NCBI GenBank assembly: GCA_035251465.1
Contig: DATFEF010000028.1
Coordinates: 715 to 64,714 of the forward strand
DNA length: 64,000 bases
Direction: 5' to 3'
DNA from: Rhizomicrobium sp.
GTDB taxonomy: Bacteria; Pseudomonadota; Alphaproteobacteria; Micropepsales; Micropepsaceae
Made by a program: the position numbers and the translations under genes. The notes beneath the pieces are model-generated. The model worked only from the letters and a program-made list of their open reading frames with translations, did not search any database and was not told the DNA's origin. This document shows positions 512-11,826 of this stretch, in pieces. The first letter of the stretch is position 1. Every line of letters starts with the position of its first letter.

Positions 512-739
512 CGTGCTTGCGCCGGGAATACCGCAATCCAGGGCGTATCCGCCGCGTCACTTGTTTTTGTAAAGGCTTCCGAAAGGTTAATCTTCCGGGG
601 GCTGACAATATGTCAAAGCCTCCCACCGGGAATGCCAGGCGAAAAATGTTCCACCGCTCTTCACAATTGGTCTGGTTTGCAGTTCCGGAACAACTGCTGC
701 ACGCTGCGTGATCTAAGCTTCGCATGGATCGGCGGTCAT

Positions 740-3700
740 ATGGTGAGGCCAATCGGGACCCTTAGATATGCGCGCATCGGCATATTCGCGGTCATCCTGA
801 TTTGCGGCGTCGCGCTGGCCGGCTGGCAACTGGAAATTCCCGTCCTGACCAGTTTCGTGCCCGGCTGGCCGCGCATAGCGCGTATTGTACTCTTTTGCTT
901 TGTGTTGTGCTCCGCCGGCGTCCTGGAACTGACCCTGCCGGCCAGGCACCGATTCCTTTTGCTAGCGCGGATCGCCGGCGCAAGCCTGGTATTGGCGATC
1001 AGCGTCTCTGTGCTGATCGACTTTGCCGCTGCGGGCGGCCCTGACGCCCGCATACCGGCGTTCCGCGATCTTTTTGGCCCCCGGCTGGAGCGCCCACACC
1101 CGGCCAGTGCCTTCAATTTTCTGATGGCCGCCACGGCCTTGCTGCTGCCGCGCACCGAGCGGTTCGGACGGATTTTCACCGGCCTGATCACGCTGGGCCT
1201 CATTGTCACCGCCTTTAATTTCGTGGGCTACGCCTATGGCATCGCGGCGCTCTCCCGGGGACCAACCATCTCGGCAATGGCGCTGCCCACGATGATCGCA
1301 TTCATCCTGTTCTTCTTATCGGCGCTGCTGGCAAGATCCGGGTCCGGCTGGACCGCCGTCATCCTGGCGCGCGACAGTGGCGGCATCACGGCGCGCCGCC
1401 TCTTTCCGGTCGTTCTGGCCTTTCCGTTCATGACCAACGGGATCATTCTTTTGGCGCACCGCTCTCATCCATTCGAGGCGCCGTTCGGTTTCGCCATCCT
1501 GGCGGTGATCACCGCGATCGGCCTGGGCACCATCACTATTGTCATTGCCGATTGGGTCGCCCGCGGTGAAGAGGGGCGGCAGCGAAGCCAAGCCTTGCTG
1601 GAGGCGGTGGTCGATAACAGCATGGCGATGATCCATGTCAAAGACCTTGCGGGCCGCTATCTCATGGTCAACCGCCGCTATCTGGATATTTTCCATGTCG
1701 ATCGGAAGGCGGTGATCGGCAAGACTGATTACGACATCTTCCCCAAACAGGAGGCCGACGCCTTTCGCGCCACGGACGAACAGGTGGTCCGCACCGGCCA
1801 TCCGCTGACCGCGGAGGAATGGGCCACGCAGGCGGATGGGGTCCACGCCTATGTTTCGATAAAGGCTCCGCTGCGGGACGCTGGGGGGCGCTCCTACGCC
1901 ACATTCGGAATCTCCACGGACATCACCGAAAGCAAGCGGAGCGAGCGAGCGTTGGCCGCAAGCGAAGAGCGCACGCGCCTGATCGTTGAGACGGCGTTGG
2001 ACGCCGTGGTCAGTATCGATCGGGGCGGCGCGATCACCGGCTGGAATCCGCAAGCCGAGAAAATCTTCGGATGGACGCGTCAAGAGGCCCTTGGCCGGCC
2101 GATTGAAGAAACCATCATGCCACAGCGTTTCCGCGCGGCCCACAAGAACGGGCTGGCCCGCTATCTCGCCACCGGAGAGGCCAGGGTTCTCGACCGGCGC
2201 ATCGAGTTGACCGCGCTTCACCGCGACGGTTGTGAATTCCCCGTCGAACTTTCGATCACGCCGACGGGCACCGGCGATGCGGCGGGATTCAGCGCTTTCT
2301 TGCGCGATATCACCGAGCGCAAAGGCTCCGAATCCCGGCTGCAATCGCAATTGGCGCGCCTGGCGCTGCTGGAGCGGATTACCCATGCCGTCGGCCAGCG
2401 CCAGGACTTGCGCAGCATCTTCCAAGTGGTCGTGCGCACCCTGGAAGACCGGCTGCCGGCGGATTTTGTCTGCATCGGATCCTATGATTCGACCAAGAAC
2501 GAAATCACGATCGGCCATGTCGGCGCCAACAGCACGCGTTTGGGGCACGAGCTGGGCATCGCCGAGCGCGCCACCATAGCGGTGGACGGCAACGGCCTGT
2601 CGCGCTGCATGCAAGGCGTCCTGGTTTATGAACCGGACATCGCGGCGGTCGATTATCCCTTCGCGCGCCGGCTTGCGGGCCAGGGGCTGCGATCCCTGGT
2701 GATCAGCCCCTTGATGATCGAGCAGGATATTTTCGGGATTCTGGTGGCGGCGCGCCGGAATGAACGCGCCTTCAACAGCGCCGATTGCGAATTCCTGAGA
2801 CAGCTTGGCGAGCATGTCGCCCTGGCCGGCCACCAGGCGCAACTGCGAAACAGCCTGGAGACCGCCTACAACGATCTCAAACAGACCCAACAGACCATCA
2901 TGCAGCAGGAGCGGCTGCGGGCCCTGGGACAGATGGCGAGCGGCATCGCCCACGATATCAACAACGCCATTTCGCCGGTCGCCGTCTACACCCAATCGCT
3001 GCTTGAGCGGGAGCCGGACCTTCCCGCCCAAGTGCACCGCTATCTGGAAACGGTCGATCGCGTGGTGAAAGACGTTTCCGCCACGGTCGGCCGGATGCGC
3101 GATTTCTATCGCCGCAACGACGCCGACAGCGAGCTGAGAGCCCTCAATCTCAACACATTGATTCCGCAGGTCGTGGAACTGACGCGGGCGCGCTGGAACG
3201 ACATGCCCCAGCAGCGCGGCATCGTGATCCGCATCGTGACGCAGCTGGAGAATGATCTTCCCCTGGTGTTGGGCAACGCGGCGGAACTGCGCGAAGCCGC
3301 CACCAACCTCATCTTCAATGCCGTGGACGCGATGCCCAAGGGCGGCACCATCACCATTCGCACCGTCGCGGCCCCCGATCCGTCCCGGCCCGGCGCAGGC
3401 CGGGTGCGACTTGAGGTCGAAGACAGCGGCGTGGGCATGGACGAGGACACACGCCGCCGCTGCCTGGAGCCGTTCTTCACCACCAAGGGCGAACGCGGCA
3501 CCGGCTTGGGCCTGGCCATGGTCTATGGCACGGCCCAACGCCACAAGGCGAAGCTGGATATCCAAAGTGCGCCGGGAAAAGGAACCGGCATGATCCTGAG
3601 CTTTGCGGCGACGGAGGAACGCCAGGAACAGGAGCAGAGGGCCAAGGCGCCCACGGTCCCGGTCTTGCGTATACTGCTTGTCGACGACGACCCTTCGGTT

Positions 3701-4072
3701 CTGGAATCGACGCGGTATGTGCTGGAGCTTGACGGGCATAGCGTGGTGCCGGCGGATGGCGGTCGCGCCGGCATCGATGCCTTGCGGGAAGCAAAAAAGG
3801 ACAATCGGCCTTTTGATGTGCTGGTGACCGATCTTGGAATGCCCTATGTCGACGGCAATGCGGTCGCCCGCGCCACCAAGGAACTTTTTCCCGCAACAAT
3901 GGTCGTTCTCTTAACCGGCTGGGGAATAAAAATGGGGGAAGACGGCAAGCGCAAGGCGCATGTCGATCATGTGTTGCCCAAGCCCTTTGACCTCAATGAA
4001 TTGCGGGCGGTATTCCTGCACCATCCCAAGGCGCAATTGGCCGACGGGGCACAAAAGCAGACCGGCGCGTAG
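740..4072 (+). CDS. Membrane hybrid histidine kinase (multi-TM, PAS, PAS, GAF, HisKA, HATPase, REC)
   Basis: Hydrophobic N-terminal ~270 aa, two PAS folds, GAF, H-box GIAHDINN, N-box NLIFNAVDAM, FFTTK..GTGLGL, REC with VDDD/TDLGMP/KPF. Start chosen at ATG 740; the ORF is open from 632. Confidence 0.9.
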   Translation: MVRPIGTLRYARIGIFAVILICGVALAGWQLEIPVLTSFVPGWPRIARIVLFCFVLCSAGVLELTLPARHRFLLLARIAGASLVLAISVSVLIDFAAAGGPDARIPAFRDLFGPRLERPHPASAFNFLMAATALLLPRTERFGRIFTGLITLGLIVTAFNFVGYAYGIAALSRGPTISAMALPTMIAFILFFLSALLARSGSGWTAVILARDSGGITARRLFPVVLAFPFMTNGIILLAHRSHPFEAPFGFAILAVITAIGLGTITIVIADWVARGEEGRQRSQALLEAVVDNSMAMIHVKDLAGRYLMVNRRYLDIFHVDRKAVIGKTDYDIFPKQEADAFRATDEQVVRTGHPLTAEEWATQADGVHAYVSIKAPLRDAGGRSYATFGISTDITESKRSERALAASEERTRLIVETALDAVVSIDRGGAITGWNPQAEKIFGWTRQEALGRPIEETIMPQRFRAAHKNGLARYLATGEARVLDRRIELTALHRDGCEFPVELSITPTGTGDAAGFSAFLRDITERKGSESRLQSQLARLALLERITHAVGQRQDLRSIFQVVVRTLEDRLPADFVCIGSYDSTKNEITIGHVGANSTRLGHELGIAERATIAVDGNGLSRCMQGVLVYEPDIAAVDYPFARRLAGQGLRSLVISPLMIEQDIFGILVAARRNERAFNSADCEFLRQLGEHVALAGHQAQLRNSLETAYNDLKQTQQTIMQQERLRALGQMASGIAHDINNAISPVAVYTQSLLEREPDLPAQVHRYLETVDRVVKDVSATVGRMRDFYRRNDADSELRALNLNTLIPQVVELTRARWNDMPQQRGIVIRIVTQLENDLPLVLGNAAELREAATNLIFNAVDAMPKGGTITIRTVAAPDPSRPGAGRVRLEVEDSGVGMDEDTRRRCLEPFFTTKGERGTGLGLAMVYGTAQRHKAKLDIQSAPGKGTGMILSFAATEERQEQEQRAKAPTVPVLRILLVDDDPSVLESTRYVLELDGHSVVPADGGRAGIDALREAKKDNRPFDVLVTDLGMPYVDGNAVARATKELFPATMVVLLTGWGIKMGEDGKRKAHVDHVLPKPFDLNELRAVFLHHPKAQLADGAQKQTGA

Positions 4073-4136: not shown

Positions 4137-4223
4137 GCAATCGGGGTAGACTGTGTTCGCTATGAGTTCTGGCTGGGGACGGCGCCGCATCGTCCCTGTT
4201 CCGCGAAAACGGGGGAGAGCTTG

Positions 4224-4637
4224 ATGGATATGCCGTCGCACGATGTGGTGCAGGGGTTTCTCAACGCGCATAGCTGGTACCGCATCGACACGCCGTTGGA
4301 CTATCTGCGCGCCGGTCTTTGGTGCGTTTCAAACCTCGCCACGGCGCTGGCCTATTTCTTCATCCCCAATGAGCTTCGCTATTGGCGACGGGTGCTGCCC
4401 TTTGCCGCCTCCACGCTGCTGGGGACCCTCTTCATCGCCTTCATTGCCTTTTGCGGCCTGTCGCATCTGTCGATGCTGGCGATCATGCAGACCGCGCCCT
4501 GGTGGGCGATCCTGCTGATCTATCTTCCGATGGCGATCGTGTCGGTCGCCACCGTCATCGTGATGCGCAAGGATCGCGCGCTCATCCTGTCGGTGCTGGA
4601 AAGCATCAGCAAGGCCCTGACGGCCAAACGCTCATGA
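4224..4637 (+). CDS. Stand-alone ethylene-receptor (ETR1-type) transmembrane sensor domain protein, 137 aa
   Basis: GGAG RBS 6 nt before ATG 4224. Three hydrophobic helices SNLATALAYFFIPNELRYW, FIAFIAFCGLSHL and MAIVSVATV match ETR1 SDFFIAIAYFSIPLELIYF, FGAFIVLCGATHL and TAVVSCATA. Confidence 0.85.
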   Translation: MDMPSHDVVQGFLNAHSWYRIDTPLDYLRAGLWCVSNLATALAYFFIPNELRYWRRVLPFAASTLLGTLFIAFIAFCGLSHLSMLAIMQTAPWWAILLIYLPMAIVSVATVIVMRKDRALILSVLESISKALTAKRS

Positions 4638-6109
4638 CGCCGGATAGCGCGGACCCGGCACCAACCGCGCTTCCCGACGAAGCGCAAGACGAGCGGGAAT
4701 CCCTATGGGAAGACGCGCGCAGGGCCGTGGCCAGCCTGGAAGCGGCGGTCGATACCACGCCGCGCTGGATAGCCGCCATGCTGGCGTTGATTGCCGCTCT
4801 GCTGTTCCTGCTCGGCTCCTATGGCGTCAACCGCCTCAATGCCGGCCGGACGCGGGAGGCTCTCGATCAGGTTCAGCGCAACAGCGCGGTGATCGACCAG
4901 ACTGCCAGCGCCAATCTGGCGATGTTGCGGGTCGATGTTGCCATGCGCGGCTATGCCCTGACGGGCACCGACCTGCATGCCGAGGCCTATCTGAGGAACC
5001 GGGCGGCGCTGACCGCGCGATTCGACGAATTGGCCAAGCTGGTTTCCGGCAATGTCGCTCAGAGCAAAAGGATGGCGCAGCTAAAGGCCGAGATCGGAAA
5101 ATATTTCGCCGATTACGACTCAGCGGGCGGACGGTCCATTCCCGACAGGCAGGATCTCGCCCGCAGGCTTTCCGGGCCCTCGGTGCCGCAACGCGACAGG
5201 CAATATGGCTTGCGCGTGCGGGCGCTGTTCGATGCTATCGCCAATGCCGAACGCGATACGCTGGCGATACGGCGAAGCGATGCGGACGCAAACCGAAGAT
5301 CGATGCAGCTGATCGCCGATATCTGCATCGTCCTGGCGATCCTGTCGGGGGCGGCCGGCCTTTTGCTGATGCAGAGGGAGCGGGGCAAGAGCAAGCTGCG
5401 CGAATTGCATCTGGAATACATGCACACCCAGCGCCTGGCGCTGATGGGCCAGACGTCGGTGGCGATCGCCCATGAGGTCAAGCAGCCGCTGACGGCGGCG
5501 AGCAATTACCTGGCCGTGCTGCGGAACCTTTCCGCCGGGGGCGCGCATCTGCCGCCCGAACGCGCCAAGGAGATCCTGCCGAAGATCGAGATTCAGATCC
5601 ACCGCGCCGGCGAGATCGTACAGCGGCTGCGCAACTTCCTGGCCATGCGCGGCGGCGAGCGCGTCAGCGAGATGCCGAAAATCCTGATCGCCGACGCGGT
5701 GGACCTTTTGGGCACCCTGGATGCGGCCATCAAGCTGGAAACCCATGTCGAGCTTGGCCTGCCTGCCGTCCTGGTCGACCGGGTGCAGGTTCAGCAGGTG
5801 CTGGTCAATCTGATGCGCAACGCCCTGGACGCGATGAAGGACAAGCCGCAGCGGCGGCTGGTTCTCAAAGCCGCGGCGGCACCGGGCAGCAAAGTCAAAA
5901 TCACCATCGAGGATAATGGTTCGGGCCTGTCCGATCAGATCGCCAAAAATCTCTTCAAGCCGTTTGTCAGCAGCAAGCATGGCGGCATGGGCGTTGGCTT
6001 GTCGATCTGCCATACCATCATCACCGCCCATGGCGGGCGGATATGGGCGGACGCCCTGCCCTCGGGCACCGCATTCCATTTCACCTTGCCCACCGCGCGC
6101 CAGGCGTGA
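4634..6109 (+). CDS. CHASE3-domain sensor histidine kinase with FixL/NtrB-like kinase core
   Basis: ATGA overlap with the upstream stop. TM-CHASE3 (MRGYALTG)-TM, then IAHEVKQPL, QQVLVNLMRNA, DNGSG and GMGVGLSIC. Confidence 0.88.
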   Translation: MTPDSADPAPTALPDEAQDERESLWEDARRAVASLEAAVDTTPRWIAAMLALIAALLFLLGSYGVNRLNAGRTREALDQVQRNSAVIDQTASANLAMLRVDVAMRGYALTGTDLHAEAYLRNRAALTARFDELAKLVSGNVAQSKRMAQLKAEIGKYFADYDSAGGRSIPDRQDLARRLSGPSVPQRDRQYGLRVRALFDAIANAERDTLAIRRSDADANRRSMQLIADICIVLAILSGAAGLLLMQRERGKSKLRELHLEYMHTQRLALMGQTSVAIAHEVKQPLTAASNYLAVLRNLSAGGAHLPPERAKEILPKIEIQIHRAGEIVQRLRNFLAMRGGERVSEMPKILIADAVDLLGTLDAAIKLETHVELGLPAVLVDRVQVQQVLVNLMRNALDAMKDKPQRRLVLKAAAAPGSKVKITIEDNGSGLSDQIAKNLFKPFVSSKHGGMGVGLSICHTIITAHGGRIWADALPSGTAFHFTLPTARQA

Positions 6110-6395: not shown

Positions 6396-6935
6396 ATGCA
6401 CACCGCTATCAAATATGCCCTCACGGGAGTCATTGCCGCAGGCCTGGGCGCCGCCGGTTTCGCGGCCATCGCACAGACCGATCCCAAAGTCGGCGTCACC
6501 GTCAATGATCCGGTCGGCCCCGTGCCCGATCCCGCCCGTGTGGGCTTTACATTGTCCAAGGACCTCAAGTGCACCGGCACCGAAGGCAAAATGCAGATGT
6601 GCTACCTGTATGGCGATCCGAAAAAGCCGGGTCCCTATACCGTGATGTACAAATGGTGGCCGGGCAATTTCTCCAAGCCGCATTATCACAACAATGAACG
6701 CTGGGCCTATATCGTTTCCGGCACCTGGTGGACCGCCTCCACCACCGTCTATGACGAGCGCACCACCTATCCGGTCCCTGCCGGCTCGGTGGCGGTCGAC
6801 AAGCTGAAGGGCATTCATTGGGACGGCGCGCGCAAGGGCGAAAAGGAGCCCACCGTACTGATCCTGTCAGGCACCGGCCCCCACACCAGCCAGCTTGTGG
6901 ACGAGAATGGCAAGGACCTGGGCCCCCCCTTCTAA
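6396..6935 (+). CDS. Secreted cupin-domain protein
   Basis: GGAG RBS, signal-peptide-like N-terminus, cupin motif PHYHNNERWAYIVSG and a later H (GIHWDG). Confidence 0.75.
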   Translation: MHTAIKYALTGVIAAGLGAAGFAAIAQTDPKVGVTVNDPVGPVPDPARVGFTLSKDLKCTGTEGKMQMCYLYGDPKKPGPYTVMYKWWPGNFSKPHYHNNERWAYIVSGTWWTASTTVYDERTTYPVPAGSVAVDKLKGIHWDGARKGEKEPTVLILSGTGPHTSQLVDENGKDLGPPF

Positions 6936-6960
6936 GACCCGTTAAGAAGTGGAACACATG

Positions 6961-6997
6961 GCGTTACGCCGCCCGAACCGCTCGGGCGGCGTAACGC
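6961..6997. terminator. Perfect 16-bp-stem hairpin after the cupin gene
   Basis: gcgttacgccgcccga-accgc-tcgggcggcgtaacgc. No strong U-tract follows. Confidence 0.5.
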
Positions 6998-7040
6998 TGT
7001 GGAAGCATCGGTGGGCGGCCGGACTAAGGAGGGCGCAGTT

Positions 7041-7235
7041 TTGAAAAAATTCCAGCCAGTCTATTTGTTTCTGCTGATTCCCTATGCCGCCTGGGTCTGG
7101 GTGCCGTTCTACAACCGCCTGGAGCCCAGCCTGTTCGGTATTCCCTTTTTCTACTGGTCGCAGATCGCGGGCATTTTCCTGACCGCGCTGTGCATCCTGC
7201 CGGTCTACCTCCACCAAGAAAGCCGCCGCAAATGA
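7041..7235 (+). CDS. DUF3311-like small membrane partner of a solute symporter
   Basis: AGGAGG RBS, TTG start, VPFYNRLEPSLFGIPFFYW motif, ATGA overlap with the symporter. Confidence 0.85.
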   Translation: MKKFQPVYLFLLIPYAAWVWVPFYNRLEPSLFGIPFFYWSQIAGIFLTALCILPVYLHQESRRK

Positions 7236-8776
7236 ACAGCACCGTCATCGTCTTCCTGGCGCTGTTCGTTTTCGTCGCGCTGCTGGGCCTGTTCGGATCG
7301 CGCTGGCGCGCCGGCGATCTGTCCCAGCTGCATGAATGGGGTTTGGGCGGGCGCAGCTTCGGCACGATTATCACCTGGTTCCTGCTGGGCGGCGATATCT
7401 ACACCGCCTACACCTTCATCGCGGTGCCCGCTTTGATGTTCGGCGCCGGCGCGCCCGGCTTTTTCGCCGTGCCTTATGCCGCGTTGATGTATCCCTTATT
7501 GTTCCTGGCCTTTCCGAGGCTTTGGTCGGTGTCGCACCGCCACGGCTATGTCACCGCCGCCGATTTCGTGCGCGGGCGCTTCGGCCATCGCGGCTTGGCG
7601 CTGGCCATCGCCGTGACCGGCCTGGTGGCGGTGATGCCTTATATCGCGCTGCAATTGGTGGGCATGCAGGTGGTGATCGCGGCGCTGGGACTGGACTATG
7701 CCGTGCATCTGCCGCTGGTGGGCGCGGTGTCGGTGCCGCTGATCGCCGCCTTCGTGGTACTGTCGGCCTTTACCTATACATCGGGCCTGCGCGGCACCGC
7801 CTTGATCGCGGTGGTGAAGGATTTGCTGGTCTATATCACCGTGCTGGCAGCGATCATCATCATCCCCTCGGAGCTGGGCGGTTACGGCAAAGTGTTCGCC
7901 GCCATACCGCCACAGCAATTGCTGCTGCCGCCGGCGCCGAAAGGAAGCTTGGGGCCGGCCTTTGCCTATATCACCCTGGCGCTGGGTTCGCTGCTGGCGC
8001 TGTTCCTCTATCCCCATTCGGTAACCGGCTTGCTGTCATCCTCCGGCCGCCATGTCATCCGCCGCAACGCCATGGTGCTGCCCGCTTATTCGGTGGCTTT
8101 GGCGCTGATCGCGTTGCTGGGCTATATGGCGTTGGCCTCGGGGGTGAAGGCGATGCCCGAATATGCCGCCGGCTTTAAAAGCTTCGGCAACAATTTCGCG
8201 GTGCCGGCGCTGTTCCTGCACATGTTTCCCGCTTGGTTCGCTGGGCTTGCCTTCGCCGCCATCGCCATCGGCGCGCTGATGCCCGCTTCGATCATGGCGA
8301 TCGCCTGCGGCAATCTTTTCACCCGCAATATCTTCAAGGAGTTCATTTCACCCAACTGCACGCCGCAAGCCGAAGCCAAGGTCGCCAAGCTGGTGGCCTT
8401 TGTCGCCAAGCTGGGGGCGCTGTTCTTTGTCCTGGGATTGCAGACTACCTACGCCATCCAGCTGCAATTGCTGGGCGGCATCTGGATCTGCCAGACGGTG
8501 CCGGCGGTGCTGCTGGGTCTGTATGTGCGGCTGGACCCGCGCGCACTGCTGGTAGGCTGGGCCACGGGCGTCGGCCTGGGCACCTGGATGGTGCTGCAGC
8601 TGGGCTTCAAGAGCAGCACCTATCCGCTGCACATTTTCGGACTGACGGTGCCCTGTTATGCCGCGGTCAGCGCCCTGCTGGCCAATCTTGCGGTCAGCTG
8701 GCTGCTGACCCTGGCACTGCGCGCCGCCGCCCGCACAGCTGAGACCGACGAGACGCGGGCGGAAGATTACGTGTAA
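7232..8776 (+). CDS. mctP: Sodium:solute symporter family monocarboxylate permease (MctP-like)
   Basis: EWGLGGRSFGTIITWFLLGGDIYTAYTFIAVP motif and many TM helices. Confidence 0.85.
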   Translation: MNSTVIVFLALFVFVALLGLFGSRWRAGDLSQLHEWGLGGRSFGTIITWFLLGGDIYTAYTFIAVPALMFGAGAPGFFAVPYAALMYPLLFLAFPRLWSVSHRHGYVTAADFVRGRFGHRGLALAIAVTGLVAVMPYIALQLVGMQVVIAALGLDYAVHLPLVGAVSVPLIAAFVVLSAFTYTSGLRGTALIAVVKDLLVYITVLAAIIIIPSELGGYGKVFAAIPPQQLLLPPAPKGSLGPAFAYITLALGSLLALFLYPHSVTGLLSSSGRHVIRRNAMVLPAYSVALALIALLGYMALASGVKAMPEYAAGFKSFGNNFAVPALFLHMFPAWFAGLAFAAIAIGALMPASIMAIACGNLFTRNIFKEFISPNCTPQAEAKVAKLVAFVAKLGALFFVLGLQTTYAIQLQLLGGIWICQTVPAVLLGLYVRLDPRALLVGWATGVGLGTWMVLQLGFKSSTYPLHIFGLTVPCYAAVSALLANLAVSWLLTLALRAAARTAETDETRAEDYV

Positions 8777-8778
8777 CG

Positions 8779-8878
8779 AGCGCAGCGGATTTTGGCCGCT
8801 GGCCAGGCGCGAGGAGCGAAGTGGGCTTAAAGCCTATGAGCGACGAGCAACGCCGCCAGAGGGCAAAAGACGCGCGCT
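8779..8878. repeat. Palindromic intergenic element between convergent mctP and pstB
   Basis: agcgc...ggcgcgaggagcgaagtgggcttaaagcctatgagcgacgagcaacgccgccag...gcgct, with imperfect inverted ends filling the whole gap. Confidence 0.55.
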
Positions 8879-9722
8879 AGCCGAAACGGCCGGTGATGTA
8901 CTGCTCTGTGCGCTTGTTATCGGGCGCGGTGAAGATTTTCTCCGTCGCGCCATATTCGATCAATTCGCCCAAATACATGAAGGCGGTATAGTCGCTGGCG
9001 CGGCTGGCCTGCTGCATATTGTGGGTGACGATCACGATGGTGTAATCGGCGGCCAGCTCTTCGATCAGCTCCTCGATCTTGGCGGTGGAGATCGGGTCCA
9101 GCGCCGAGCAGGGCTCATCCATCAGAATCACTTCAGGCCGCGTCGCCACGCTGCGCGCGATGCACAGCCGCTGCTGCTGGCCGCCCGACAGCGACAGGCC
9201 GCTGGCATTCAGCTTGTCCTTGACTTCGTTCCATAGCGCGGCGCGCGACAGCGCGTGTTCGACGCGGCCGTCCATTTCCGAGCGCGGAATGCGTTCATAG
9301 AGTTTGATGCCGAAAGCGATATTGTCATAGATCGACATCGGGAAAGGCGTGGGTTTCTGAAACACCATGCCGATACGGGCGCGCAGCAGATTGAGATCCT
9401 TGGTCTTCAGCAGATTCTCGCCGTCCATCAGGATTTCGCCTTCGGCCCGCTGGTTGGGATAGAGCTCGAAGATGCGGTTGATGGCGCGCAGCAAGGTGGA
9501 CTTGCCGCAGCCGGAGGGACCGATGAATGCGGTCACTTTGCGGTCCATCAGCGGCAGGCTGATATTCTTCAGCGCCCTGTTGGCGCCGTAATAGAAGCAC
9601 AGATCCTTGATCTCGACCTTGGCCTTGTCCGCGGGCGCGGCGTGCCCCGACGCGACCGGCCCCGGTGCGGTGTGCCCCGGTGCGGCGTCATGGTCTGGCG
9701 TCATGTGAACTGCGGTGTCCAT
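8877..9722 (-). CDS. pstB: Phosphate ABC transporter ATPase
   Basis: [41 protein letters not shown]. Confidence 0.97.
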
Positions 9723-9725
9723 GGA

Positions 9726-10583
9726 TCAGGTCCGTTTCTGGTTTTCGAGAATGCGGGCAGCGATGGAAAGCACCAGCACGGTCGCGGTGATCAGCAGCGC
9801 CCCAGCCCAGGCGAGGGCATGCTGATCTTCATAGGGCCCGGTGGCGAAGGAATAGATCACCGCCGGCAGGCTGGCCATGGGCTCGTTCATGGCGCTGGCG
9901 CTCCAACTCCATCCGCTGTTGCCCAGGGCGGTGAAGAGAAGCGGCGCAGTCTCGCCGGAGATGCGCGCCACCGCCAGCAGCACGCCGGTGATGATGCCGG
10001 CGCGGGCCGCCTTCCAGGTGACGGATTTGATGACAAAATTTTGCGGCGCGCCCAGCGCGCTGGCGGCTTCGCGCAAGCCATTGGGCACCAAGAGCAGCAT
10101 ATTCTCGGTGGTGCGCACCACCACGGGGATCACGATCACCGTCAAGGCGGCGGCACCCGCCCAGCCGGAAAAATGCCCCATCCGCACCACCAGAAGTTCA
10201 TAAATGAACAAGCCGATGACAATGGAAGGGGCCGACAACAGGATGTCGTTGACGAAGCGCACAACAAAAGCGAGCCGTCCGTGACGGGCATATTCCGCCA
10301 GATAGGTCCCGGCAAAAATCCCGATGGGCGTGCCCGCCAAGACCGCGATGGTACTCATCAGAATGCTGCCGCCTATGGCATTGGCAAGCCCGCCCTTGCT
10401 GCCCGGCGGCGGCGTGATCTCGGTGAATAGCGTGGGTGACAGGGCCGAAATGCCGTCCACCAAGAGCCCGCCCAGAATGAAGGTCAGCCAGACCAGGCCA
10501 AACAGGGCGGCGCTCATGGACAGGCCGATAAAGACCGTGTTGGTGAGCCGGCGGCGGAAATAGAGCGCGCGATTTGCCAGCAT
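9726..10583 (-). CDS. pstA: Phosphate ABC transporter permease
   Basis: [34 protein letters not shown]. Confidence 0.96.
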
Positions 10584-11567
10584 CTAATGCCCCTTGCTCC
10601 GTTCCATCCGCAGCAGCATGAACTGAGCGCAGGCCAGGACGATGAAGGTGATGACAAAGAGAAGCAGCCCGAGTTCGATCAGCGCCGAACGGTACAATTC
10701 CCCGGTCGCTTCGGTGAATTCGTTGGCGATGGCGGCCGAGATCGAGGTGCCCGGCGCGAACAAGGAAGGTGCAATCTTGTGCGCGTTGCCGATCACGAAT
10801 GTGACCGCCATGGTCTCGCCCAGGGCGCGGCCCAAGGCCAGCATGGCACCGCCCATCACGCCGGTCTGGCAGAAGGGCAGACAGACTTTCCACATCACTT
10901 CCCAACTGGTCGCCCCCAACCCATAAGAAGCTTCCTTCAACACGCTGGGCACGGTCTCCAGCACGTCACGGGTCACCGCCGAAATGAAGGGCAGGATCAT
11001 GATGGAAAGGATCAGGCCGGCGGTGAGCGTGCCGATCCCGAAGGTGACGCCGCCGAACAGCGTGCCGAGCACCGGAATATCGGCAACGGCGGTGGCCACC
11101 GGTTCTTGCACATGAAGCTGGAACCAGGGCGCGAACACGAAGAAGCCCCAAATGCCATAGATGATGGAGGGAATGCCGGCGAGCAGCTCGACGGCGATGC
11201 CGATGGGGCGGCGCAGCGGGCGCGGGCAAAGATCGGTGAGGAAGATGGCAATGCCGATGCCGACCGGCACCGCGATGAGCATGGCGATCAGACTGGTGAC
11301 CAGCGTGCCGTAGATCGGAGCCAGCGCGCCGAACCGTTCGCGGGTGGGACTCCAAATTTCCGTGGTGATGAAGCCAAAGCCAAAAGCCTTGAAGGCCGGC
11401 ATAGCGCCGATGATCAGCGAGGTGATCACGCCCGCGAAAATCGCCAAGACCGTCAGCGCCGCCGCAAGCGCGGTCAACCGGAAACGCACATCGCCCGCCC
11501 CAGCCCGGCGGGCAGTCTCGACTCGGGCGGAGAGGGCAGCAGGTTCGCGCAAGCTGATATCGGTCAA
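10584..11567 (-). CDS. pstC: Phosphate ABC transporter permease
   Basis: ELLAGIPSIIYG and LGRALGETMAV. TTG start with GAGG RBS chosen; the ORF is open to 11678. Confidence 0.95.
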   Translation of the reverse strand: MTDISLREPAALSARVETARRAGAGDVRFRLTALAAALTVLAIFAGVITSLIIGAMPAFKAFGFGFITTEIWSPTRERFGALAPIYGTLVTSLIAMLIAVPVGIGIAIFLTDLCPRPLRRPIGIAVELLAGIPSIIYGIWGFFVFAPWFQLHVQEPVATAVADIPVLGTLFGGVTFGIGTLTAGLILSIMILPFISAVTRDVLETVPSVLKEASYGLGATSWEVMWKVCLPFCQTGVMGGAMLALGRALGETMAVTFVIGNAHKIAPSLFAPGTSISAAIANEFTEATGELYRSALIELGLLLFVITFIVLACAQFMLLRMERSKGH

Positions 11568-11625
11568 AGACGGCCTCGGAAAGACGTGGATGGGAGGCAA
11601 TTCACACTCCGTCCACGCCACGAAC

Positions 11626-11654
11626 ATCACAGTCTTGCAAAGCTTTTGTGACAG
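11626..11654 (-). promoter_or_regulatory. Candidate Pho box upstream of pstC
   Basis: Minus strand CTGTCAC-aaaa-gctttgc-aaga-CTGTGAT: two PhoB-like half sites 22 bp apart, on the 11-bp period. Confidence 0.6.
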
Positions 11655-11826
11655 GCGGCCGGATGTTATTATAAGCATATGATATATAATAGATATTTCT
11701 ACTCCAGGGGGCGCCGGCAGCGACGCTTTGGGGTTAAACGGCTCGGTTCAGCCTTTAAACGTTTCTGAACGGTGGATACGCGACACTGCCGCCGGCAAAA
11801 ACCCGGCAATAAGGCTGATATTTTTG

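Follow-up and report, generated by a model that had tools for sequence, protein, structure and literature searches.

A stand-alone ETR1_N membrane protein encoded in overlap with a CHASE3 histidine kinase in Rhizomicrobium sp., a candidate accessory sensing subunit

The 64,000-nucleotide stretch of a Rhizomicrobium sp. contig analyzed here (the window) encodes a small membrane protein related to the sensor domain of ethylene receptors, and the stop codon of its gene overlaps the start of a histidine kinase gene. The features of this gene pair are as follows.

4211 to 4219, forward strand: Shine-Dalgarno-like purine run before the sensor gene (sequence; GGAG or GGGG runs precede most of the homologues displayed)
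4224 to 4637, forward strand: gene for a stand-alone ETR1_N membrane protein of 137 aa (open reading frame including the stop codon, Pfam, AlphaFold2, dN/dS)
4332 to 4334, forward strand: Asn37, at the position of ETR1 Asp25, a natural D25N (alignment)
4452 to 4487, forward strand: Cys77-x3-His81, matching the Cys65/His69 copper pair of ETR1, then Met84 and Met88 (alignment, AlphaFold2 helix 61-87)
4521 to 4532, forward strand: Tyr100 (Lys91-equivalent) and Met103 (Thr94-equivalent) in helix III (alignment)
4575 to 4631, forward strand: C-terminal cytoplasmic helix, residues 118 to 136 (AlphaFold2 helix; contact role putative)
4634 to 4637, forward strand: ATGA overlap of the sensor-gene stop and the kinase start (sequence)
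4634 to 6109, forward strand: partner histidine kinase of 491 aa (Pfam, NCBIfam, hydropathy, AlphaFold2 of residues 1 to 259)
4706 to 4741, forward strand: conserved cytoplasmic N-terminal helix of the kinase, W-x2-A-R-x5-L-E (alignment, AlphaFold2)

The sensor gene is real and conserved. A purine-rich run, GGGGGAGAG, lies at positions 4211 to 4219 with its GGAG core 6 nt from the ATG, in agreement with the initial annotation, which had described a 137-aa protein with its own ribosome binding site. The reading frame is open upstream to position 3960, and homologues begin at the Met encoded at 4224. Conservation extends over 60 aligned homologues, and dN/dS values of 0.036 to 0.118 against six close homologues indicate purifying selection. 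A homologue search restricted to proteins of 75 to 240 aa returned 72 matches, all of 77 to 155 aa and 70 of them of 130 to 155 aa; the named matches were Rhizomicrobium or Proteobacteria metagenome-assembled genomes. No sigma-70-type promoter was matched between positions 3900 and 6500, where terminator-like hits were near the chance level.

Several other genes lie near the pair. A hybrid kinase with a PAS-PAS-GAF-HisKA-HATPase-receiver layout is encoded upstream on the same strand (632 to 4072) and is not conserved beside the pair; it was rejected as the partner of the sensor protein, since it occurs there only in the near-identical locus L002 and as a relic in L104, which retains only its receiver end. 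The region from 6396 to 8776 encodes a cupin-like protein with a signal-like N terminus (a weak Pfam match), followed by a DUF3311 protein and the monocarboxylate permease MctP (669 bits, over the cut-off). Three reverse-strand genes (8877 to 11678) resemble, by eye, pstC, pstA, and pstB of a phosphate ABC transporter. In a related locus, L143, the sensor/kinase pair lies just after phoU-phoB.

The sensor protein matched the Pfam family PF25487 (ETR1_N) over residues 32 to 114 with 44.2 bits (cut-off, 27; E 2.3e-11), confirming the resemblance to the ETR1 N terminus that had first been noticed by eye. The same cut-off was passed by all 15 genomes of the host order that carry the stand-alone form, and the sensor gene was the only ETR1_N match in the host genome, which is 70% complete. 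AlphaFold2 placed helices at residues 24-57, 61-87, 93-116, and 118-136 (mean pLDDT, 79), and the protein is predicted to have three membrane helices with the N terminus outside and the C terminus inside. The distribution of Lys and Arg (three in loop 1, none in loop 2, and six in the C-terminal tail) suggests this orientation, and the three transmembrane helices proposed initially are supported by the model. Searches of the PDB by sequence, using the protein and its profile, returned nothing relevant and no ethylene receptor, and fold searches against the PDB and viral models gave no match at an E value of 0.001 or below.

To define how general the absence of an output domain is, loci were gathered from genomes (80 of 162), from regions of relatives (20), and from metagenomes (80 of 140), with 11 duplicates dropped. 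In the close clade, all 56 complete loci, some of which are near-identical contigs, stop 57 to 77 residues past the Cys and none is fused; four further loci run off the contig end. The claim of a sensor domain without an output domain therefore holds throughout the complete loci of the clade. Among more distant ETR1_N loci, 106 were fused, four were stand-alone, and one was cut. Within the host order, the stand-alone gene was present in 15 of 301 genomes and fused ETR1_N in 10 others (L094 to L101, G138, and G179, all of the host family and with Asp-type ETR1_N in longer frames); no genome among the 301 had both, with about 0.5 expected by chance. In the five longer-frame Asp-type proteins that were scanned, a HisKA_2/HWE-type kinase is part of the same chain. 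Elsewhere in the phylum, 400 sampled genomes gave 29 full matches, all in frames of at least 401 aa, and one 48-aa partial match, so the stand-alone form is rare in bacterial chromosomes. No longer, fused relative of the stand-alone clade was found among 7,994 scored candidates, which is weak evidence.

The kinase is composed of an N-terminal helix, TM1 (residues 46 to 64), a periplasmic CHASE3 domain, TM2 (226 to 244), HisKA, and HATPase. Its core is likest FixL, the best NCBIfam match, at 217 bits, which is far under the cut-off of 850. The ATGA overlap is likely to couple translation of the two genes. When the neighbors of homologues were tabulated, as had been proposed at the outset, 43 of 47 bacterial-type loci, and 14 of the 15 carrier genomes of the host order, encoded one overlapping or abutting kinase partner bearing the N-terminal motif. 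The partner is offset from the sensor-gene stop by −4 in 38 of these 43 loci, by −1 in three, and by +1 and +6 in one each. Of the other four loci, two have a partner truncated where the contig ends, L116 retains a 26-aa remnant with the motif, and L115 lacks a partner.

All 43 coupled partners have W-x2-A-R-x5-L-E before TM1. Twelve of the 14 partners scanned with Pfam are CHASE3-HisKA-HATPase kinases and two have MASE3, with the motif present in all 14; the partner in L143 is a MASE3-GAF-kinase-receiver protein, and that in L010 is a MASE3 protein ending at 262 aa. Because CHASE3 and MASE3 partners both keep the motif, it tracks the small gene and not the sensor domain of the kinase. A motif-plus-TM1 profile was run on the 301 genomes of the host order, with 20 to 22 candidates scored per genome. 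Strong matches (E of at most 8e-14) were found in 14 genomes, all directly behind the small gene, in a test that is partly circular, as these 14 are the sequences used to build the profile; the partner gene of the 15th carrier is cut by a contig end. The 19 other matches were weak (E of at least 2e-5) and mostly covered only the transmembrane segment. The overlap and the motif helix are still kept where the N-terminal region of the partners has diverged to about 20 to 30% identity. The flanking genes vary among loci (SHMT, pgsA/moaE, a TonB receptor, PhoU/PhoB, FecCD, or the hybrid kinase), and the pair thus travels as a unit. The 43 loci are not independent, because all carriers form one related lineage.

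Among 55 scanned neighbors of the pair, stand-alone response regulators were limited to one PhoB-like gene, next to phoU in L143, and no copper-handling gene family was found; the kinase in the window has no adjacent response regulator of its own. Some loci carry additional kinases: in L092 (11315 to 12874) and L133 (4951 to 6360), another kinase gene stands in tandem behind that of the partner, and the tandem second kinase in G037 matches the profile weakly, through the TM1 of the partner only.

In the AlphaFold2 model of kinase residues 1 to 259, the motif lies in a helix (15 to 39) ahead of TM1 with a hydrophobic moment of 0.49. This helix and the tail helix of the sensor protein are both predicted to be cytoplasmic. 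Residues 118 to 136 of the sensor protein are where fused receptors run on into GAF, PAS, or kinase domains, and in the model this helix is a candidate contact surface toward the partner, as the W-x2-A-R-x5-L-E helix is a candidate docking site for the small protein. A complex prediction with two copies of kinase residues 18 to 259 and two of the small protein gave a score of 0.02 (mark, 0.32), a value that speaks neither for nor against contact.

We favor, with moderate confidence, the reading that this is a free-standing ETR1_N protein, likely copper-binding, that likely serves as an accessory sensing subunit of the overlapping CHASE3 kinase. The initial suggestion of a free subunit acting in trans stands as the best reading, with the kinase as its candidate partner from gene context, though not in the form of an intact ethylene binder. 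Under this proposal, coupled translation would give matched amounts of the small protein and the kinase. The ETR1 domain is dimeric. The small protein, probably a dimer, would pack against the membrane helices of the kinase, and its cytoplasmic C-terminal helix would meet the cytoplasmic W-x2-A-R helix. A change at the metal site could then shift kinase activity, and the small protein would be a second, in-membrane input beside the periplasmic CHASE3 input. Against a subunit role, a subclade has an intact small gene with a decaying partner: the partner is absent in L115 (1173 to 1586), is only the 26-aa remnant in L116 (531 to 1020), and stops after MASE3 in L010 (7411 to 8199). A kinase with its own CHASE3 sensor also may not need a subunit.

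By analogy, the small protein most likely works as do kinase accessory membrane proteins of the LiaF or YycH/YycI kind. LiaF of LiaFSR, YycH/YycI of WalK, and DctA with DcuS are described as separately encoded membrane proteins that tune a kinase in trans. No homology of LiaF, YycH/YycI, or DctA to the sensor protein was found, and we know of no accessory of this type that is a metal-cofactor sensor domain elsewhere fused to kinases. Co-encoding with one kinase is the accessory-subunit feature seen here. The closest bacterial systems, AzoEtr1 and SynEtr1 (Slr1212), likewise link ETR1_N to a histidine kinase and involve overlapping genes (PMC11819568, PMC6682694). There, however, the domain shares a chain with PAS/GAF and kinase modules, and the response regulator gene is adjacent or otherwise known, whereas here it has a gene to itself, a periplasmic CHASE3 or MASE3 domain gives the kinase a sensor of its own, and no dedicated regulator gene adjoins the pair. 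Fused receptors, and neither stand-alone nor phage forms, were found in the literature considered, which includes PMC11819568, PMC6682694, and PMC7700396; other surveys and supplements may already list output-less domains.

The likeness of the sensor protein to ETR1 consists of the PF25487 match, the three membrane helices, and the Cys-x3-His of helix II. Y44, P48, E50, F70, I74, C77, and H81 are invariant in the 60 aligned homologues, and position 47 is occupied by Ile in 41 of them and by Leu in the other 19. We take Y44, I47, P48, E50, F70, and I74 to correspond to ETR1 Y32, I35, P36, E38, F58, and I62. Of what we take to be the seven residues needed for ethylene binding, six are retained, and the Asp25 position is Asn. 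The number of required residues is given as seven in PMC11819568. The gapless alignment to ETR1 at an offset of +12 made in the initial annotation agrees with the published numbers D25, C65, and H69 (PMC11971883 and PMC10266040), and the conserved CxxxH on which it relied is present in all 60 homologues; its I47 match is not general, being L in the 19 noted. Asn occupies the Asp25 position in 60 of 60 stand-alone homologues, while Asp does so in 33 of 35 fused relatives. Asn is also found in 24 of 64 longer cluster representatives, a set picked by an Asn-type profile.

Positions in helix III, compared between 43 bacterial clade rows and 35 fused rows, were mapped by anchoring on the helix III Ser, with the numbering of K91 and T94 presumed to follow that of ETR1. 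The Lys91 position is Tyr in 42 of the 43 clade rows and K/R in none, compared with K/R in 31 of 35 fused rows. At the Thr94 position, 30 of the 43 clade rows have Met, and all 35 fused rows have Thr. With Asn37 and Tyr100, the relay from Asp25 through Lys91 to helix III is absent from the sensor protein. The sensor family also differs from ETR1 in its invariant Met84, Met88, and His16, in an N-terminal N-x-H-x-W-Y motif, and in the absence of GAF, kinase, and receiver domains from the chain, and the score of 44 bits is low beside the 107 to 126 bits of Asp-type bacterial ETR1_N domains. Judged from its residues, the protein is a member of the ETR1_N family in which three defining features of an ethylene receptor (the seven residues, the Asp-Lys relay, and the fused output) do not hold. 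The intact ethylene-binding site implied by the initial annotation was therefore not borne out, given the replacement of Asp25 by Asn, Lys91 by Tyr, and Thr94 by Met.

Work on ETR1 gives these changes a direction. The low-affinity ETR1 D25N variant, which shares its Asn with the sensor protein, is reported to bind ethylene with about 100-fold lower affinity (PMC11971883). According to PMC10266040, D25N binds only minimal copper in vitro and, in the standard yeast assay, shows no saturable binding of ethylene; in plants, D25N is described as holding metal in vivo, signaling, and responding to ethylene. The same source reports that Asp25 pairs with Lys91 of helix III and that D25N combined with K91R or K91A gives ethylene-insensitive plants, and T94M is described as disrupting ethylene binding (PMC6913735). 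Because D25N cuts the affinity of ETR1 about 100-fold, high-affinity sensing is doubtful here; Asp25, Lys91, and Thr94 are all replaced, and ethylene is therefore probably not bound with an affinity like that in plants. The signal may tentatively be weakly bound, fast-exchanging ethylene or a similar small gas, and it is just as tentatively none at all (a ligand-free structural regulator) or something else; copper or metal status is a more doubtful candidate.

It is possible, but in our view unlikely, that the pair is a low-affinity ethylene receptor split into two genes, with Cu(I) at C77/H81, a fast off-rate, and ethylene as a rhizosphere cue; this would be an ethylene-specific subset of the accessory-subunit reading. 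The six retained residues are consistent with it, the isolated 130-aa AzoEtr1 domain is reported to bind ethylene alone (PMC11819568), and natural Asn variants, making up 3.67% of 1,221 ETR1-like sequences, have been proposed to have fast kinetics (PMC10266040). However, D25N, K91Y, and T94M occur together in the sensor protein, and each is tied to weak binding or lost signaling in ETR1. In the tree, the Asn-type stand-alone group is apart (100/99) from all sampled fused receptors, same-genus ones among them, and its sister sequences lie in phage-like DNA, where ethylene sensing has no obvious role. Asp-type stand-alone genes in L017, L032, L066, and L158 are better candidates for true split ethylene receptors because they keep Asp and Lys/Arg. 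These adjoin unrelated membrane kinases and fall among fused rows in the tree, which indicates that splitting of sensor and kinase occurred more than once. The records for these four loci are from Bdellovibrionota, Gammaproteobacteria, and Bacteroidota; the Asp-type genes within the regions L017 (6914 to 9071), L032 (6908 to 9525), and L066 (6917 to 9027) encode 149 to 186 aa, and genes that look receiver-like by eye come after the kinase in L017 and L032.

The phage-borne relatives bear on a different explanation. Nine deeper complete members of the clade (about 40 to 50% identity) have no kinase alongside, and so the small protein can exist without one. The stand-alone genes of L134 and L135 come after GH108 endolysin and spanin-like genes, and L139 resembles L134; that of L140 comes after a tail fibre gene, L141 is the same as the IMG/VR contig L183 with a portal gene, and those of L142, L145, and L146 are upstream of a T4-type primase. 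L136 and L138 were labelled phage-context in the trees, although these contigs are short and carry little, if any, direct sign of a phage. Most deeper members are followed by a gene for a small coiled-coil plus TM protein, and more distant stand-alone relatives adjoin lysis genes in L186 and L188. The phage proteins of L134/L135, L183, L186, and L188 are from the same or the next clade, share the size and the Asn for Asp25, and are usually followed by an overlapping membrane-protein gene; they differ in that this next gene is not a kinase. ETR1_N genes in phage lysis or late regions lie within L135 (1118 to 3315), L134 (2 to 1488), L188 (1622 to 4408), and L186 (5971 to 7751) and in L140 and L183. 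In L186, a 93-aa ETR1_N gene overlaps a TM-coiled-coil-PAS gene that is followed by an M15 endolysin, and a 279-kb IMG/VR contig, L185 (5911 to 7026), carries a fused ETR1_N plus HWE histidine kinase.

An exhaustive search returned 220 clusters; among the best 150, 86 are of at most 170 aa, some of which may be fragments, and these 86 have the Cys in 80 and the His in 82. Uroviricota was the commonest known phylum among the top Atlas clusters. A tblastn search of GenBank phages with one phage-type member gave no match, and viral scans with single proteins gave one locus and none. In a quick tree, the bacterial group fell within the phage-context rows. In a more careful tree of 30 rows the base was not settled, and a single phage clade was not rejected by the AU test (p 0.596); a phage-to-bacterium direction is therefore not claimed. 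An origin of the kinase N-terminal helix in phage partner proteins was rejected, as seven phage-side neighbors scored −1.7 to 4.8 bits, no higher than shuffled maxima, and the phage next-gene proteins have no measurable likeness to the kinase motif.

These relatives raise the possibility, which we consider slightly less probable than a split receptor, that the protein is a captured phage membrane gene (a lysis accessory or holin-like protein) with a role unrelated to the kinase, for example in the envelope or against phages, and that the overlap reflects operon history. The closest outside relatives lie beside endolysin/spanin-like, tail fibre, portal, and T4-type primase genes, Uroviricota is the phylum most often recorded for the top Atlas clusters, the small gene of L115 has no kinase, and a holin family, phrog_198, was matched weakly (E 0.0064); the holin family PF07332 reached 13.2 bits against a cut-off of 28.4. 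However, the overlap and the kinase helix persist despite divergence of the partner and changed chromosomal sites, no phage genes were found among the scanned neighbors of the 47 bacterial-type loci, and the GC content is in line with the surroundings. The gene in the window is not in a lysis cassette; it lies among chromosomal signaling and transport genes. The accessory-subunit reading can be combined with such an origin: a soil lineage of Alphaproteobacteria may have captured a copper-site sensor of phage lysis cassettes and turned it into a plug-in subunit of a kinase, which gained a docking helix, a scenario that we put forward as rather unlikely.

Still less probable is a copper or soft-metal sensor or buffer, in which C77, H81, M84, and M88, with C34 and H16, would bind Cu(I) and their occupancy would regulate the kinase. 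Cu(I) is usually bound by Cys, His, and Met. Cys77, His81, Met84, and Met88 are each invariant in 60 of 60 homologues, and their i, i+4, i+7, i+11 spacing predicts that they share one helix face; H16 is invariant in all 60 and C34 is present in 59, and from their conservation H16, C34, M84, and M88 are possible additional metal ligands. The loss of the Asp-Lys relay would weigh less if metal were sensed, which favors this explanation. Against it, M84 is substituted in the phage-type subgroup, and the 55 scanned neighbors of the pair are without copper-handling gene families.

That the gene is an artefact or relic, either what is left of a fused receptor or part of a single chain continued into the kinase by programmed frameshifting, is highly improbable: 41 of 43 loci do have the kinase starting in the −1 frame at the stop, but a slippery-type heptamer occurs at only 1 of 43 junctions with no shared site, two loci are in other frames, and the kinase possesses a start and two membrane helices of its own, on which grounds programmed frameshifting was rejected, while the homologue lengths, the 56 of 56 conserved stops, the dN/dS of 0.036 to 0.118 (about 0.1), the lack of a fused clade member among 106 fused loci or (weak evidence) longer proteins, and the placement of same-genus fused ETR1_N kinases in a different clade rule out a frameshift fragment and speak against a relic.

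The ethylene receptors characterized in the literature, as far as the sources cover it, have the sensor fused to its output, and the passage of a signal through ETR1_N has been modelled and not solved, neither sequence nor fold searches of the PDB having given a match. At 137 aa and free of any output domain, this natural version offers a small object for structural work and metal chemistry, and it combines the D25N, K91, and T94 changes, known as mutants from plant work, in a single chain. If it binds no ethylene, it is a warning that a match to PF25487 does not by itself denote an ethylene receptor. If the small protein controls the kinase, an ETR1_N domain can signal across chains, and the pair would give a measurable output by which to study stand-alone ETR1_N proteins more widely, a large and apparently undescribed group with many phage-borne members. 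Should the phage-capture scenario be correct, the ethylene-receptor domain would be a mobile, detachable sensing module whose ligand is not high-affinity ethylene, and the pair would offer a kinase readout for what the phage versions sense.
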